Source of the DNA: Candidatus Thorarchaeota archaeon SMTZ1-45
GTDB taxonomy: Archaea; Asgardarchaeota; Thorarchaeia; Thorarchaeales; Thorarchaeaceae
Length of the DNA stretch: 36,229 nt
Assembly: GCA_001563335.1 (NCBI GenBank)
Contig: LRSL01000092.1
Span: forward strand, 1-36,229
Reading direction: 5' to 3'
Below, piece after piece: positions 14,347-23,325 of the stretch. Within the stretch, counting starts at the first letter, position 1. Each line of letters begins with the position of its first letter. The notes under the pieces are model-generated. The model saw only the letters and a list, made by a program, of their open reading frames with translations. It made no database searches and was not told where the DNA came from. A program made the translations under genes and the position numbers.

Positions 14347-16350
14347 TTGTCCGAGAAGAAATCTAGTTCAAATCCAACACCTGCACCAACAAAGGTTGAC
14401 TCAGGAGATATCAAACAAGGCACAATTGCTAAATTCATGCGAAAGCGTACGCAGCTTGTAGGATTTGAAACTGGACTTAACAAACACACGCAATATGCAA
14501 TTGAGTTCTTGGACAATGCAATTGATGCACTCGAAAGTTGGTGGTGGAAAACTAAAAGACGCCCACGACTTCAAGATCAACTTGATCCCGCAATTGTTTC
14601 CGAAGTTCGTGCCAAACTTGAAGAGGGCCAAATTGATACCATCACCCTTAGCAAACAACTTGAGAGAGACGTCAAAGCAGGAAAGGAAGTCGAGATTCAA
14701 GCAAGACGTAAAGAATCCATTGATGAGCGTATAACCGAGTTTCGAAAATTCGTGGTGCCTTTACGACCTTTATTGTCAAAGAGAGAGCCTTTAGTAGTTC
14801 TAGAACTAAAAGAGGTTCAAATGCCTGACCTTGTTCCCATTGATGATGAAGAAGGATTCAAGGTCTATGAATTCACATGTTTTGATACCGGTGTGGGTAT
14901 GGTACCAAATGATCTTGAAAAATTCGGTATCTATCTTGCATCTAGCAAATCTGAGAAACTAAGACAGACAAGAGGAAGCCAAGGATTTGGTGCACCTTCT
15001 GCATTTAGTGATGCGCAAAACACTACTGGAAAACCCATTTTCACTATATCAAAACGATTCAACTCTGATGTAACAACTATCACCAATTTCTACACAACCA
15101 CTGCAAACACAAAGGAACATGTTGGTGGTCCAGTGAATATGGACCTTCCATTCAACCATGGCACATATATCCGATTATACTATTTGAATATTCAATACCG
15201 ACGAGGGTACGCTGATATCTATTGTGAGATGGCATCACTCCTCAACTCCCATGTGACAATAATCTTCATTGATCCATATGGTGTCGTTCACATACATCCT
15301 CGCCGAGTTAATGCTTTCCCTGAAGAACCAAAGTATGCTCAGCCACATCCTGCAAGCATCAGAATCGGTGAGTTTCAAGACTTACTTCGTGAAACCAGAG
15401 AATCGGATTTACGTGGCTTTTTGACTAAGGCTTTTTGCCGATTGAGTGCAAATAAGGCAAAAACCATAGTTGCCAATGCAAGCAAGGACCTCCGAAGAAG
15501 GCATCTTGACGATCTTAAAATGACTACACCTACTGATTCCCTCTCCAAGACTGAGGTCGAACTACTTTATCGAGCTTTTTCAAGCGAAGATTATATCGCT
15601 CCTCCAACAGATACTGTTGTTCCAGTTGGCGAAGAAATATTCGAACAAACAATTCAGATGGCCTATAATCCTGATTTCGTTGCAGCTGTTACAAGAAAAC
15701 CTACATCAGGAAAGGGCTTGTCTTTTGCAATTGAAGTATGTATTGCCTACGGTGGTGAAATCAAACCAGCTTCATCTGCTCCAATGGTTCTCTGGAGGTT
15801 TGTCAATAGAGTACCAAAACTTCGTGATAATAGTGACTGCGCCACCTGGAAGGCAACAGCCTCAGTAAACTGGAAAAACTACAAGCTACAGTCCTTTGAT
15901 AATGGAATTCCACGTGGTCCAGTTATGGTGTTTATTCATGTTGCAGGGGCTTATGTACATGTCATGTTCAAAGGACAGAGTAAACAAGCGCTTGCGGAGG
16001 ATGAAGTGCTCCTGAGGGAGATAAAATTAGCACTCGAAGATGCAGGACGTAAGTTCAGGCGCTTCATAACACGACGTGAAACAGCACGACGGAAAGCAAA
16101 GCGTGCTGGAATCCTTGCTATGTATGCTGATCAATTCGCTCAAAGTCTTGTAACAATAGCTAATGATGGTAGGAAGAAACCCATTTTCGATGCTGAAACA
16201 ATTGCCAGTAAACTCAGAGACTCTATTACAGGATTCGAAACAGTTGAGGACCAAGAAGAAACCGAAACTGATGCTCTTGGAACAGATCTTATAGCTGACA
16301 TACCACTTGATGACGATGAAGGAGCTATTGAAGAAGGTGAGCTTGAATGA
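14347..16350 (+). CDS. top6B: DNA topoisomerase VI subunit B
   Basis: GHKL motifs EFLDNAIDA, DTGVGM, QTRGSQGFG and HGT; PHP; RFVNRVP; SKQALA. TTATAAA at 14317 favours TTG 14347 over 14332. Confidence 0.93.
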   Translation: MSEKKSSSNPTPAPTKVDSGDIKQGTIAKFMRKRTQLVGFETGLNKHTQYAIEFLDNAIDALESWWWKTKRRPRLQDQLDPAIVSEVRAKLEEGQIDTITLSKQLERDVKAGKEVEIQARRKESIDERITEFRKFVVPLRPLLSKREPLVVLELKEVQMPDLVPIDDEEGFKVYEFTCFDTGVGMVPNDLEKFGIYLASSKSEKLRQTRGSQGFGAPSAFSDAQNTTGKPIFTISKRFNSDVTTITNFYTTTANTKEHVGGPVNMDLPFNHGTYIRLYYLNIQYRRGYADIYCEMASLLNSHVTIIFIDPYGVVHIHPRRVNAFPEEPKYAQPHPASIRIGEFQDLLRETRESDLRGFLTKAFCRLSANKAKTIVANASKDLRRRHLDDLKMTTPTDSLSKTEVELLYRAFSSEDYIAPPTDTVVPVGEEIFEQTIQMAYNPDFVAAVTRKPTSGKGLSFAIEVCIAYGGEIKPASSAPMVLWRFVNRVPKLRDNSDCATWKATASVNWKNYKLQSFDNGIPRGPVMVFIHVAGAYVHVMFKGQSKQALAEDEVLLREIKLALEDAGRKFRRFITRRETARRKAKRAGILAMYADQFAQSLVTIANDGRKKPIFDAETIASKLRDSITGFETVEDQEETETDALGTDLIADIPLDDDEGAIEEGELE

Positions 16351-18578
16351 GTCGTAAGAAATCAAAGGAAAAAGAAGAAACTGTTCAAGCAACCCTTAGC
16401 GAGGTTGTTGAAGAACCTAAACTAAAGAAGAATACAAAGGCGAAACCCGTGAAGAAGAGCACAAAGAAAACATCTAGAAAAACATCCAGTACAAAAAAGA
16501 CCAAACGCACTTCTAAAAAGACTCCTGATAAGAAAGAAACTCCAAAGGAAAAGGAAGCTCTAAAAAGGAAAGAGGAACCGCCTGCTCCAAAGAAGACGAC
16601 CAAAAAGAAGTCTGCTTCAAAGAAAAAGGAAACCAAGACACAGAAAACGACTTCAGTAAAGAAAGAAGTACCAATTGAACCTCCAGAGAGTTCCTTCAAG
16701 TTAACTGAGCTACCAGGGGTTGGACCAAAACTAGAAGAAAGGTTGGTTAAAGCAAAATATGAAACAGTTGAGAAGTTGTCACGTGCAAGACCTTTCTCAA
16801 TTGCTAAGAAAGTTGAAGGACTTAGTAAAGCTGGAGCAAAGAAACTCATAGATGCTGCCAAGGATTTGGTTAAGAAACGAAATGTAACAATTGAATCTTC
16901 TGAAGCTCAACCAGATATCAAAGTTGAAGATATTCCTCCGCCAAAGTTTGCCTTGACAGATGTTCCTGGTTTGGGACCCAAACTTGCCCTTTCCTTGGAA
17001 CATGCAGGTTATGACTCAGTTGCTCGATTAGCTAGAGCATCTCCGCAAAATGTTGCAAAGAAGGTGGGTGGTCTTAGACTTCAGAAAGCGATATCGATTG
17101 TTAATGCTGCCAAAGGTTTGATTCTAGATCAGGAATTAGCAGAGCTGACAGGAGAAACTGAAACACTAGTTATTACTGCAGCAGCATCTTCAGCAGATGC
17201 AACATCACCACCTGAGATGGAACCTGCTTTAAAGGATGAGAAACCAGCGAAAAAACCTGCGAAAGAGAAAGGACCCAAGAAAAAAGCTCCCAAGAAAAAA
17301 GCACCTCTTACAAAGAAGCCGGCTAAAGCACCTAAAGCGCCTCCCATTAAGAAACTTAAGCCTATTCGAAAAGAATCCGGTTTGCCTGTTCCAAAAGCTG
17401 TCCAGGATCTTGCAGTTGAATTAAAGGAGAACTGGGCTCTAGTAGAACAAAGAGTTCAAGAATTACCTGGATCTGGTGGGGTGGCTGAACCTTTAATTGA
17501 AACAGTTGAAGTTGTAAATCTTTCTGCTGATGACACAACGGAGAGAATCGTTGATACTGCATTAGATATTCTAAATGAAACCATGACAAGTGGAAGACCT
17601 GCATTTGATATACCAAGTAGGTCCGGTGACAATATCGTCTGGGATGAGGTCCGAGATTTACTGCTATTAGGAATGCGTACAATCTCGCGTCCATATCACT
17701 CACTAGCATCTGTTGTTGACGCAACAAGAACAGCTCGCGTTATGGAGATTGTTTTCAATCTTCTGAAATTAAACCTGCATGCAACGAAACGTGAGGTTTA
17801 CTACAGCGATGTTAACCTATTCAGAGAACAGAAGTATAGTGATAAGATCATTGAAGATGTCGCTTCTATGATTCAGACTACACGTGACAGTATTCATGTA
17901 GTTGCATCTGCTCGAGGTTCTGCCATGGGTCGAGTGACTATACGAGATGGTGGTGACCTTATTGATTTGACAAAGATGGGCACGGGCGGATGGGCTGTAA
18001 CACCATTTCTAGACCAACTTGAGATAGTTGAGAGTGATGCTGAGTTCATTATATTGTCTGAGAAAGATGCTGCTGTTATGCGTCTTGCTGAAGCAAAGTA
18101 TTGGAACCGCCAACCTTGTATAGTAATTACTGGAAAAGGATCAGGCGACATTGCTACAAGGGCATTCCTCAAGATGTTAGTGAAGGAACTTGAGATTCCA
18201 GCTTTTGCATTAGTAGACTCAGATCCATATGGTCATTACATCTATTCTGTATTCCTTAGAGGTAGTAAACGATTGAGCTATGAATCACCATTCATTGCTA
18301 CGCCAGAGCTAAAGCTTCTTGGAGTTTTGAGTCGTGACTTGGATGAATATAAAATACCCAAAGCAGTTCGAATTCCAATGCAGCCAACTGACATTAAGCG
18401 CGTCAAAGATATGTTGAAAGAACCATTCGTAAAACGGAATAAACCCTGGGTTGAAGATTTAGAATTGATGCTCAGACTTAAAGAGAAAGCTGAGATTCAA
18501 GCATTTGCAAGTCACAGTTTTGAATTTCTCACTGATGCATATATCCCCCGAAAACTGGAAACAGGTGATTGGATTTAA
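16347..18578 (+). CDS. top6A: DNA topoisomerase VI subunit A (Spo11 family) with long N-terminal Lys-rich and 2xHhH extension
   Basis: TKREVYY catalytic Tyr, EKDA, TGKG, DSDPYG Toprim and KAEIQA; ATGA overlap with top6B. Confidence 0.95.
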   Translation: MSRKKSKEKEETVQATLSEVVEEPKLKKNTKAKPVKKSTKKTSRKTSSTKKTKRTSKKTPDKKETPKEKEALKRKEEPPAPKKTTKKKSASKKKETKTQKTTSVKKEVPIEPPESSFKLTELPGVGPKLEERLVKAKYETVEKLSRARPFSIAKKVEGLSKAGAKKLIDAAKDLVKKRNVTIESSEAQPDIKVEDIPPPKFALTDVPGLGPKLALSLEHAGYDSVARLARASPQNVAKKVGGLRLQKAISIVNAAKGLILDQELAELTGETETLVITAAASSADATSPPEMEPALKDEKPAKKPAKEKGPKKKAPKKKAPLTKKPAKAPKAPPIKKLKPIRKESGLPVPKAVQDLAVELKENWALVEQRVQELPGSGGVAEPLIETVEVVNLSADDTTERIVDTALDILNETMTSGRPAFDIPSRSGDNIVWDEVRDLLLLGMRTISRPYHSLASVVDATRTARVMEIVFNLLKLNLHATKREVYYSDVNLFREQKYSDKIIEDVASMIQTTRDSIHVVASARGSAMGRVTIRDGGDLIDLTKMGTGGWAVTPFLDQLEIVESDAEFIILSEKDAAVMRLAEAKYWNRQPCIVITGKGSGDIATRAFLKMLVKELEIPAFALVDSDPYGHYIYSVFLRGSKRLSYESPFIATPELKLLGVLSRDLDEYKIPKAVRIPMQPTDIKRVKDMLKEPFVKRNKPWVEDLELMLRLKEKAEIQAFASHSFEFLTDAYIPRKLETGDWI

Positions 18579-21733: not shown

Positions 21734-22060
21734 ATGGATGTGTACAAAAACATGCCCGCGATGCCGAAGCGTGAGATATTCGAGAGGATTATCCAAAATA
21801 TAACGAGCAAATTTCCCGATGTCTATGCAGCTCTCTTCATCAGTCCTGAAGGTTTTCCCATTAATACTTGGGGTGTAACATTGGAAAGGGCTGAAGAAAT
21901 CTCTGCTCTTCTAAGTGCATTAATTGGCAAAACTTGGGAGATAGTAAGGGGTGTCAAAGAAGGCGGCGAGTTAGCATTCATTCAGATTCAAACAAACATG
22001 GGTGGAATCAGAATCGCTCCTCAAGAGGAATTCATTCTAGTTACATTGACTCGTGGATAA
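21734..22060 (+). CDS. Roadblock/LC7 (MglB-like) domain protein
   Basis: AALFISPEGFPI...ISALLSAL...GELAFIQIQTNMG..I..ILVTL pattern, 108 aa. Confidence 0.85.
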   Translation: MDVYKNMPAMPKREIFERIIQNITSKFPDVYAALFISPEGFPINTWGVTLERAEEISALLSALIGKTWEIVRGVKEGGELAFIQIQTNMGGIRIAPQEEFILVTLTRG

Positions 22061-22272: not shown

Positions 22273-23325
22273 TTGTCACCAAAGAAGGCAGCAGATGAAG
22301 AATACGACGAAGAGGAAATGGACTATGAGGAATTTGAAGGAACCAATGAAGAAACTCTTGAGTCAGGAGGCGATGACTCTAGTGTTTCTGGGATTGAGGT
22401 AACTGATCTTCCCGGTGTAGGTCCAGCTATTGGAAAACGTTTAGCTGAATCTGGCTACAAGAATGTTGAAGCTATTGCGGTTGCATCACCCGGTGAACTT
22501 GCTGCTGCAGGATCAATTGGTGAAACCACAGCTACTAAAATCATCAAAGCAGCCCGTGAGATGCTAGATATTGGTTTTGAAACAGCTGATCTTCTTCTTG
22601 AGAGACGAAGGACCGCTGGCAGAATTACTACTGGATCAAAAGCTCTTGACGAGCTGTTTGGTGGTGGAATTGAAACTCAATCAATCACTGAGATGTATGG
22701 CTCTTTCAGATCTGGGAAGACACAAATGGCGCATCAATTAGCTGTAAATGTTCAACTTCCTTCTGACCAAGGCGGTCTGAGTGCGAAAGCAATCTATGTT
22801 GACACTGAAGGTACTTTTCGACCAGAACGCTTAGTTGACATGGCAGAAGCATATGGTCTGGATAGTGCGAAAGTTCTCAAGAATGTCGTATGGGCTCGTG
22901 CCTATAATTCAGACCATCAAATTCTATTATGCGATCAAGCTATGGAGATGGCGACTGAGCATAACGCAAAACTGCTAGTTATAGACTCAGTAACAAGTCA
23001 TTTTAGAGCAGAATATACTGGTAGGGGAACTCTAGCGGCAAGGCAGCAGAAACTCAACAAGCATTTGCATCATCTTCAGAGAGGTGCAGAGATTAACAAC
23101 ATGGCAATTTACATCACAAACCAAGTGATGTCTCGTCCTGATGCTTTCTTTGGCGATCCAACAGCACCAGTGGGAGGACATGTATTAGCACACGTACCAC
23201 AGACTCGCTGTTATCTTAGAAAGTCAAAGGGAGAACGGAGAATATGTCGTCTTGTGGACTCTCCCAATCTTCCTGAAGGCGAAGCTGTATTTACTGTTTT
23301 GAAAGAAGGCATTCGCGACGTCTAG
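22273..23325 (+). CDS. radA: DNA repair and recombination protein RadA
   Basis: N-terminal HhH (DLPGVG), FETA polymerisation motif, GSFRSGKT Walker A, DTEGTFRPER and LLVIDS Walker B; SD GGGAGGT before TTG. Confidence 0.97.
   Translation: MSPKKAADEEYDEEEMDYEEFEGTNEETLESGGDDSSVSGIEVTDLPGVGPAIGKRLAESGYKNVEAIAVASPGELAAAGSIGETTATKIIKAAREMLDIGFETADLLLERRRTAGRITTGSKALDELFGGGIETQSITEMYGSFRSGKTQMAHQLAVNVQLPSDQGGLSAKAIYVDTEGTFRPERLVDMAEAYGLDSAKVLKNVVWARAYNSDHQILLCDQAMEMATEHNAKLLVIDSVTSHFRAEYTGRGTLAARQQKLNKHLHHLQRGAEINNMAIYITNQVMSRPDAFFGDPTAPVGGHVLAHVPQTRCYLRKSKGERRICRLVDSPNLPEGEAVFTVLKEGIRDV

Follow-up and report, generated by a model that had tools for sequence, protein, structure and literature searches.

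The window analysed here is a stretch of 36,229 nt (contig LRSL01000092.1) from the genome of Candidatus Thorarchaeota archaeon SMTZ1-45 (genome G000 in our set; 119 contigs, 87.7% complete, 5.8% contamination). It carries a gene pair encoding both subunits of the type IIB DNA topoisomerase VI (Topo VI), namely Top6B and Top6A, the latter being the Spo11 homologue. The Top6A protein is composed of a 384-amino acid (aa) N-terminal extension (referred to below as the arm) and an intact catalytic core (residues 385-743). The following parts of the arm were distinguished: (i) a short N-terminal tip, (ii) two lysine-rich tracts, (iii) two helix-hairpin-helix domains of the (HhH)2 type, separated and followed by linkers, and (iv) a conserved segment joining the arm to the core (Table 1). 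The initial annotation had described a 743-aa Top6A with a Lys/Thr/Ser-rich tract, two HhH domains, a KKAP-repeat tract and an intact core, and this architecture was confirmed by the open reading frame (ORF), Pfam, composition and motif analyses.

The two HhH domains belong to the Pfam family PF14520 (HHH_5), which was detected in two stretches (2.3e-19, 70.1 bits against a cut-off of 27; best match at residues 119-173). Our own HhH profile, built on 13 seeds that include both Top6A domains, placed them at residues 117-173 and 201-256 (nt 16695-16865 and 16947-17114; 82.3 and 78.5 bits), in agreement with the positions first assigned by eye (16701-16868 and 16953-17120). The domains share 29 of 63 residues (46%, BLASTP E 2e-18), and the first hairpin of each is canonical (PGVGPK and PGLGPK). 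In the AlphaFold2 (AF2) model both are helical (HhH)2 units with a predicted local distance difference test score (pLDDT) of 85-94, each with four DSSP helices of at least 4 residues, and the linker between them is disordered. Foldseek matched the tandem HhH (AR domains) of NusA (1.6e-4) and DNA-bound Topo V (8df7_A, 6.4e-3). Topo V was also the best match of residues 105-181 by sequence in the PDB (4gfj_A, 1.1e-7; 8df7_A and 5hm5_A, 3.4e-7).

The remaining parts of the arm are of low complexity. Tract 1 contains 36% Lys (33 Lys, 15 Thr and 10 Ser; net charge +26), and tract 2 contains 40% Lys and 20% Pro (net charge +17). Both vary freely in length and sequence among orthologues, and both were modelled at low pLDDT (31-54) and are predicted to be disordered. 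The full-length AF2 model was used solely for the order and disorder of the arm; its core is poorly modelled, probably because the 32-row alignment is almost invariant there. The DNA under tract 2 contains tandem repeats with periods of 9, 12 and 15 nt (17241-17342), which suggests that the length of the tract changes by slippage and fits the length variation seen among the orthologues. In the segment joining the arm to the core, K342, S344 and W363 are invariant in 32 family orthologue rows, and the K-x-SGLPVP motif (residues 342-349, nt 17370-17393) is absent from the inspected orthologues of other Asgard lineages.

Table 1. Features of the Top6B-Top6A locus and the RadA gene used for comparison (window coordinates).
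Feature	Coordinates	Strand	Evidence
Top6B partner gene, 672 aa	14332..16350	+	Pfam Topo-VIb_trans 8.7e-43; M. mazei Top6B match 3.2e-56
Shine-Dalgarno (SD)-like AGGTGA (16335-16340) and ATGA stop/start overlap (16347-16350)	16335..16350	+	Sequence
Top6A, whole ORF, 743 aa plus stop, start ATG	16347..18578	+	ORF list, Pfam
N-terminal tip, residues 1-24: basic cluster MSRKKSKEK, then PIP-like ETVQATLSEVVE	16347..16418	+	Orthologue alignment
Lys/Thr/Ser-rich tract 1, residues 25-116	16419..16694	+	Composition; pLDDT 31-40
(HhH)2 domain 1, residues 117-176, Pfam HHH_5	16695..16874	+	Pfam, own profile, pLDDT about 85-89
Poorly conserved linker, residues 177-200	16875..16946	+	pLDDT <50; dN/dS 0.2-1.4 (19-24 codons)
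(HhH)2 domain 2, residues 201-260, Pfam HHH_5	16947..17126	+	Pfam, own profile, pLDDT about 89-94
Acidic/neutral linker, residues 261-295, no Lys, net charge -8	17127..17231	+	Composition
KKAP-type Lys/Pro tract 2, residues 296-345	17232..17381	+	Composition; pLDDT about 36-54 (10-residue block means)
K-x-SGLPVP motif and helix (350-371) joining arm to core, residues 344-384	17376..17498	+	Conservation; helix pLDDT about 75
Top6A/Spo11 catalytic core, residues 385-743	17499..18575	+	Pfam; S. shibatae Top6A 2zbk_A 1.2e-57
RadA, 350 aa, single HHH_5 N-domain at residues 42-96 (comparison object)	22273..23325	+	Rad51 8.5e-98

Within the core, PF04406 (TP6A_N, 5Y-CAP) was identified at residues 460-518 (3.1e-19, 69 bits, cut-off 26) and PF21180 (Top6A/Spo11 Toprim) at residues 567-737 (6.1e-53). 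The catalytic motifs are intact: KREVYY (residues 481-486), which aligns with R..YY of the S. shibatae and M. jannaschii Top6A proteins, and SEKDA (571-575) and DSDPYG (624-629), both invariant in 32 orthologues. From this alignment and the yeast Spo11 numbering we take Tyr486 (codon 17802-17804) to be the catalytic residue. The codon of Glu572 is located at 18060-18062, and those of Asp624 and Asp626 lie within 18216-18224.

The Top6B stop codon sits inside the Top6A ATG (a 4-nt ATGA overlap). The junction AGGTGAGCTTGAATGAG, comprising the SD-like AGGTGA and the overlap, recurs in several same-genus orthologues and, from its sequence, is a predicted translational-coupling site. Contigs of two other studies cross it with 0 differences (X2 record 1, 15954-17015; X3 record 7, 15855-16656). 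No single piece of this cover spans the whole stretch, and e.g. positions ~17415-17596 are without cover. Matches of 18 nt between the window and a 39-kb contig were rejected as spurious.

The arm is not confined to this assembly. Matches of 695-757 aa starting at or before query residue 82 (66-81% identity) were found in 19 of 24 same-genus genomes; in four of the remaining five the matches are contig-end fragments, and the fifth (G003) showed a paralogue only. In a GTDB class sample of 87 genomes, with matches accepted at E ≤ 1e-60, the gene is present in 79 of the 85 other genomes of the same family (f1), and 65 of the 80 gene-holding genomes, G000 included, have an open frame of 642 aa or more, the longest reaching 954 aa. 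Among 71 public loci, 56 of the 69 with a core encode at least two HhH domains (51 two, four four and one five), and the 13 loci with fewer are cut by a contig end (11), contain an N run (1) or have a stop 56 nt from the contig end (1). A collection of 5.8 billion proteins contains 220 relatives with 630 aa or more, and in all of the best 120 of these PF14520 is combined with the Top6A domains. These long relatives carry automatic names, "helix-hairpin-helix domain-containing protein" at NCBI and "meiotic recombination protein SPO11" at JGI. The HhH copy number ranges from 2 to 7: it is mostly 2, with four copies in L061-L064, five in L059 and seven in P0003 (950 aa), which matches the 951-954-aa frames of one genus. 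The suggestion that the fusion might be unique to this assembly was thus contradicted by its family-wide occurrence.

The frame of the arm is kept open, with indels in multiples of three, in at least 65 genomes and in 56 loci of independent assemblies. The HhH domains gave approximate dN/dS values of about 0.06-0.26 and the Lys tracts of 0.13-0.29, compared with about 0.03 in the core. The ratio falls below 1 in every computable part except one 24-codon linker; synonymous sites are saturated and many dS values are not computable, and the ratios are therefore rough. As such, they suggest that the arm is under purifying selection. An N-terminal motif (described below) recurs in each of the 53 distinct full-length frames, which, together with the dN/dS values, speaks against an internal start near 17520, the refutation that the initial annotation had foreseen.

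Outside the family, the best 120 of 939 near relatives include core orthologues of 394-442 aa, 60-67% identical and without HHH_5, labelled Odin-, Baldr-, Hel-, Loki-, Hod- and Hermodarchaeota. These other Asgard orthologues have a short basic N-terminal tail only. In the single sampled genome of the sister family (G025), Top6A has 420 aa, its tip is short and Lys-rich, and HhH domains are lacking. Since both the other Asgard proteins and that of G025 have short basic tails without HhH, the arm appears to have arisen within one family as an extension of a basic tail that already existed. The Asgard TopoVIA has been reported to share a eukaryote-type N-terminal helix (Brinkmeier et al., PMC9665070). 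About 10 matches of 767-947 aa in the representative search align in two separated stretches, and our guess is that they hold inteins or insertions. Label and architecture do not always agree: an HhH-bearing protein (P0213) is labelled Odinarchaeota and an HhH-bearing locus (L053) Hermodarchaeota. The submitter labels of these two and of P0365 (see below) were taken as given, without comparison with the GTDB placement.

The Top6B of the window aligns with that of M. mazei (3.2e-56) over the N-box EFLDNAIDALE and the G1/G2-like motifs, and the partner subunit is apparently ATPase-competent. Because it is paired with such a Top6B, the Top6A of the window is best regarded as a topoisomerase subunit and not as a dedicated break-maker. 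Residues 69-164 of Top6B (14536-14823) form a charged insertion of ~95 aa between the GHKL N-box and the G1 box that is not aligned to M. mazei Top6B. The sister-family Top6B of G025 (700 aa, with a K/S/T-rich N-terminus) shows a similar insertion.

A GyrA/ParC-type domain was looked for in the genome (87.7% complete) and not found, and gyrase is reported to be absent from Thorarchaeota (PMC9348778). One type IA enzyme is present, and no type II topoisomerase other than Topo VI was found in the genome. G000 contains three Top6B-Top6A operons: (i) that of the window (C92, 14332-18578), (ii) that of C101 (L002/L006), whose 350-aa Top6A is the nearest to M. mazei Top6A (1.3e-65), and (iii) that of C37 (L003/L004), whose 381-aa Top6A is divergent (1.1e-21) and has VDMSPW in place of the Toprim DxD. 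The same three Top6A types occur in most same-genus genomes. The lack of a GyrA/ParC match, the single type IA enzyme and the three operons form a context that supports a need for specialisation.

Downstream of Top6A, in the order of the window, are genes encoding an amidohydrolase (+), a Zn-ribbon/TPR protein (-), a membrane protein (-) and a Roadblock/LC7 protein (+), followed by RadA, which starts 3,695 nt after the Top6A stop. RadA is located 2.5-4.7 kb downstream of Top6A on the same strand in 35 loci, and in G025 the genes as far as RadA are arranged in the same order. The Roadblock/LC7-domain gene (7.3e-11; 21734-22060, +) is situated just upstream of RadA.

The tip of the arm contains a conserved motif. 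The sequence [TIV][VI]Q-x-T-L follows the basic cluster in all of the full-length frames mentioned above; Q14 and L17 are invariant in 45 aligned orthologues, T16 is conserved in at least 90% of them, and the extended form of the motif is Q-x-T-L-x-[DE]-h-h. The PCNA-interacting peptide (PIP) is defined as QXXhXXaa, with the archaeal consensus peptide KTTQSTLDSFFK (PMC4929162), and the tip matches its start, Q-x-x-[LIM]. Likely canonical C-terminal PIPs encoded in the same genome read QTTLTDFF and QSGLMDFF. At positions 7-8 the Top6A orthologues have mostly V, L, I or M and rarely F, and the four-copy and seven-copy forms have A-N or H-D.

A complex of Top6A residues 1-45 with PCNA of the same genome was modelled using alignments of 45 rows for the tip and 20 rows for PCNA. 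The interface score (ipSAE) was 0.72 (runs 0.71, 0.72 and 0.72), against 0.00 for the best of three controls. Of 80 solved complexes, 58 reach the mark applied to this score, as do 2 of 110 mismatched pairs; these counts hold only roughly here, as our own alignments were used. The runs share at least 71% of contacts, with a partner pLDDT of at least 50, and the modelled interface comprises Top6A residues 10-18 and 20-21 and PCNA residues 39, 42-46, 122-127, 226, 242 and 244-249. We take these PCNA positions to be the interdomain connecting loop and the C-terminal tail, i.e., the canonical PIP groove. According to this model the tip might bind PCNA, which we hold to be somewhat less likely than not. 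The PCNA genes of G000 are two in tandem and 66% identical (C69:43937-44686 and 44874-45620, both on the minus strand; L137-L139). Two such genes occur in three of four other sampled same-genus genomes, and one in all 35 matching genomes of the family's other 15 genera. No PIP motif on Topo VI was found in the literature, and PMC4929162, as far as available, has none; subscription journals and supplements were outside the scope of this search.

Domains of the same kind were found on other thorarchaeotal proteins. In same-genus genomes the ribosomal protein eL32 has an N-terminal HHH_5 domain (two of them in one genome) and a KKAP-type Lys linker (L091-L112; e.g., L091:1253-2035 and L096:779-1774). 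This architecture was confirmed by Pfam (Ribosomal_L32e plus HHH_5), and the eL32 HhH is up to 57% identical to HhH1 of Top6A. In G000 itself eL32 was not found by phmmer with the eL32 domain of a relative as a query, and at 87.7% completeness this does not show its absence. An N-terminal HHH_5 followed by a short basic linker is present in the RNA polymerase subunit Rpo6 (G000 C19:30086-30760, +; L113-L127), a protein recognised by sequence reading and a regular expression without a Pfam call, and its HhH looks like the module of Top6A. A polytopic membrane protein (frames of about 528-571 aa; G000 C82:14495-16078, -; L095 and L128-L136) carries a cytoplasmic C-terminal HHH_5 and a KKTVKKKK tail, and may serve as a membrane anchor for DNA. 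On this comparison of sequences, an "HHH_5 plus Lys-linker" module appears to have been attached repeatedly to thorarchaeotal nucleic-acid proteins (Top6A, eL32 and Rpo6) and to a membrane protein.

In known relatives, (HhH)2 domains and Lys-rich tracts bind DNA independently of sequence through the phosphate backbone. We propose that the arm is a flexible, non-specific DNA tether, possibly linked to the sliding clamp, and we regard the DNA-tethering part of this proposal as probable. An A2B2 enzyme would have two such arms and four (HhH)2 domains altogether. The arms would keep it attached to duplex DNA close to the G-segment or to DNA crossings, which would raise its affinity, processivity or salt tolerance, as for the Topo V array and the TopA lysine repeats (see below), and the N-terminal tip may also tether it to PCNA.

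Several observations weigh against this proposal. We infer DNA binding by the arm from family membership only, and the second hairpin of each (HhH)2 is degenerate, with EGLS and GGLR instead of G-h-G. Across 48 two-copy, four four-copy and one five-copy proteins there is no trade-off between HhH copy number and basic-linker charge, so the idea of interchangeable DNA-binding modules is not supported. The full-length AF2 model is poor (mean pLDDT 47.9) and gives no placement of the arm relative to the DNA gate. The arm is also not found in everything labelled Thorarchaeota, as P0365, a protein of 395 aa with that submitter label, lacks HhH and is 60% identical. As regards the clamp, the aromatic pair at positions 7-8 of the PIP is replaced in Top6A by V20 and V21. 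The multi-copy forms keep Q-x-T-L without the hydrophobic pair, so something other than a hydrophobic plug conserves the motif, which argues against a simple PIP. Finally, since PIP-PCNA complexes have been solved, the high score of the PCNA model may reflect the memory of the predictor, and what it shows is likeness and not binding.

Three other explanations were weighed against the DNA tether. The extension might not be part of the protein, either because translation starts internally, at TTG 17382, GTG 17481 or ATG 17583 (residues 346, 379 and 413), or because of an assembly artefact. These in-frame starts exist, and a GGTGG-like stretch precedes GTG 17481. Against them stand the frame kept open across the family with dN/dS below 1, the first 20 residues, which are among the most conserved of the arm, the overlap of the start with the Top6B stop behind an SD-like site, and the bridging contigs; a start at 17583 would moreover cut off conserved core residues. 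On these grounds an internal start or artefact is extremely unlikely. According to a second explanation, the HhH domains were copied from the N-domain of RadA (RadA-N), or mimic it in order to dock on RadA filaments, and would couple a Spo11-like cutter to the recombinase. It stems from the initial annotation, which had aligned both domains by eye with RadA-N. This alignment is real at the level of the shared Pfam family and fold: HhH1 and HhH2 are identical to the window's RadA-N at 21 of 61 (34%, BLASTP E 2e-12) and 20 of 57 positions (35%, BLASTP 6e-10), Foldseek gave root-mean-square deviations of 1.1-3.2 Å to RadA/Rad51 N-domains (1.3 Å over 54 columns for 1pzn_A), and RadA lies downstream on the same strand in the loci counted above. 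The likeness is nevertheless family-level, because RadA-N is the least similar of the five thorarchaeotal HHH_5 protein families (mean identity to Top6A domain 1: domain 2, 47%; eL32-N, 46%; Rpo6-N, 40%; membrane protein, 38%; RadA-N, 34%), and in the PDB search Rad51 (8.4e-5) and RadA (6.8e-4) were weaker matches than Topo V. The genes between Top6A and RadA are unrelated and on both strands, so the two do not form one operon, and the synteny is older than the HhH fusion, given that G025 keeps the order with an HhH-free Top6A. The pairing with an apparently ATPase-competent Top6B likewise speaks for a topoisomerase. For the phylogeny, 232 HhH domains (192 distinct) from Top6A, RadA, eL32, Rpo6 and the membrane protein were thinned to 97 rows by dropping rows at least 80% (Top6A domains 1 and 2) or at least 88% (other groups) identical to a row already kept, together with three truncated single-domain rows. 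In the maximum-likelihood (ML) tree (56 columns), the domain 2 rows form one group (ultrafast bootstrap, UFBoot, 93; SH-aLRT 92) nested among domain 1 rows. The point in favour of RadA is that RadA-N joins 13 HhH domains of the four- and five-copy Top6A forms (UFBoot 95, SH-aLRT 90), a grouping to be read with the few columns and an unconverged bootstrap. The domains of the window type do not group with RadA, the backbone is not resolved in either the quick tree or the ML tree, and a single clade of all Top6A HhH with RadA outside was not rejected by the approximately unbiased (AU) test (p 0.193). A RadA origin of the domains, or a link to RadA, is thus unsupported by the sequences, and we judge this explanation highly improbable. 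Of the added modules first proposed, those of DNA-binding families (HHH_5, with the Topo V match) on an intact Top6A were upheld; the RadA origin and the physical link to the recombinase were not, and no bearing on the origin of Spo11-Rad51/Dmc1 coupling was demonstrated.

The third explanation holds that the arm is mainly a protein-recruitment or regulatory scaffold, acting through QxTL, SGLPVP and the disordered tracts on PCNA, other partners or phase separation, with DNA binding being secondary. It draws on the fact that conservation in the arm peaks in two short motifs (Q14/L17 and K342/S344/W363), on the PCNA model with its clear separation from the controls (0.72 vs. 0.00), on the freedom of the Lys tracts to vary in length and sequence, and on pull-downs with NucS of P. 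abyssi, which are reported to have co-purified PCNA, replication factor C (RFC), Hef and two Topo VI subunits (PMC4929162). However, among the folded parts of the arm conservation is highest in the HhH domains, which are members of a DNA-binding family. The presence of the same HHH_5-Lys module on eL32 and Rpo6 agrees better with a generic tether for nucleic acids than with one specific partner, and the PIP-like motif lacks the aromatic pair. We consider a scaffold of this kind unlikely.

Returning to the arm as a DNA tether, its most far-reaching version is a vertically inherited, Asgard-type Topo VI turned into a clamp-tethered enzyme, bound to PCNA by the aliphatic PIP-like tip and to the duplex by the Topo V-like arm. 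Such an enzyme would ride with the replisome and clear precatenanes or positive supercoils, while the other two paralogues would take other duties. We put this forward as a speculation with rather low expectations; if true, it would be a prokaryotic counterpart of the replisome-associated eukaryotic type II topoisomerases.

The proteins themselves are already in public databases under automatic names, and the Asgard-type core and eukaryote-like helices have been described (PMC9665070). What is new here is the HhH/Lys arm of Topo VI and its PIP-like tip. No description of such an arm on Top6A was found in the literature, with subscription journals and supplements, including the alignments of PMC9665070, outside the scope of the search, and the main texts on Topo VI evolution that were covered do not mention HhH. 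The finding indicates that accessory DNA tethers like those of Topo V and actinobacterial TopA can also be gained by a type IIB enzyme. With 2, 4, 5 and 7 domains on an almost invariant core, the natural variants form a test set for the influence of flanking DNA contacts on relaxation, decatenation and processivity. If real, the PIP-like tip would be a first direct handle on the recruitment of an archaeal type II topoisomerase to the replisome.

Compared with the known Top6A proteins (S. shibatae 2zbk_A, M. mazei 2q2e_A and M. jannaschii 1d3y_A), the thorarchaeotal enzyme has the same 5Y-CAP Tyr, Toprim Glu and DxD, and its gene likewise directly follows Top6B. The difference lies in the additional 384-residue arm with two (HhH)2 domains, two Lys tracts and the PIP-like tip. 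The N-domain of RadA/Rad51 shares the HHH_5 family and fold at 34-35% identity, but is a single copy fused to a RecA-type ATPase, and a specific relationship is unsupported. The tails of histone H1 resemble the Lys tracts in their K, P, A, T and S composition and KKAP-type repeats. The label "histone-H1-like" of the initial annotation is accordingly apt for the Lys-rich composition, but no linker-histone domain (the H1 globular winged helix) is present among the 10 Pfam families found at E ≤ 0.01. With the PIP clients (Fen1, the RFC large subunit, PolB/PolD, NucS, NreA and TIP) the tip shares Q and h (Leu) of QXXhXXaa and a likeness to KTTQSTLDSFFK; it is flanked by basic residues, lies at a protein terminus before a disordered linker, and occupies the canonical groove in the model. 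It differs in being N-terminal and in having an aliphatic V-V for the aromatic pair, a pair of positions that is not conserved in the multi-copy forms.

The closest parallels to the arm as a DNA tether come from two other topoisomerases. Topo V of Methanopyrus kandleri (type IC) is likewise a topoisomerase with a tandem (HhH)2 array. It has 12 such domains, with structures solved with DNA (PMC9489208), and a chimeric polymerase is reported to become more salt-tolerant through its HhH motifs (PMC8313265). Its catalytic domain and mechanism are unrelated to those of Topo VI. The Topo V array is C-terminal and is reported to include AP-lyase repair domains (PMC9489208), whereas the thorarchaeotal array is N-terminal, has two copies in the window (up to 7 elsewhere) and is interleaved with Lys tracts. 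Actinobacterial TopA also carries low-complexity Lys repeats on a topoisomerase, and in Streptomyces these are reported to stabilise the TopA-DNA complex and to confer high processivity (PMC5714199). TopA is a bacterial type IA enzyme with C-terminal repeats and no HhH, and its resemblance to the thorarchaeotal Top6A is an analogy of design and not a homology.

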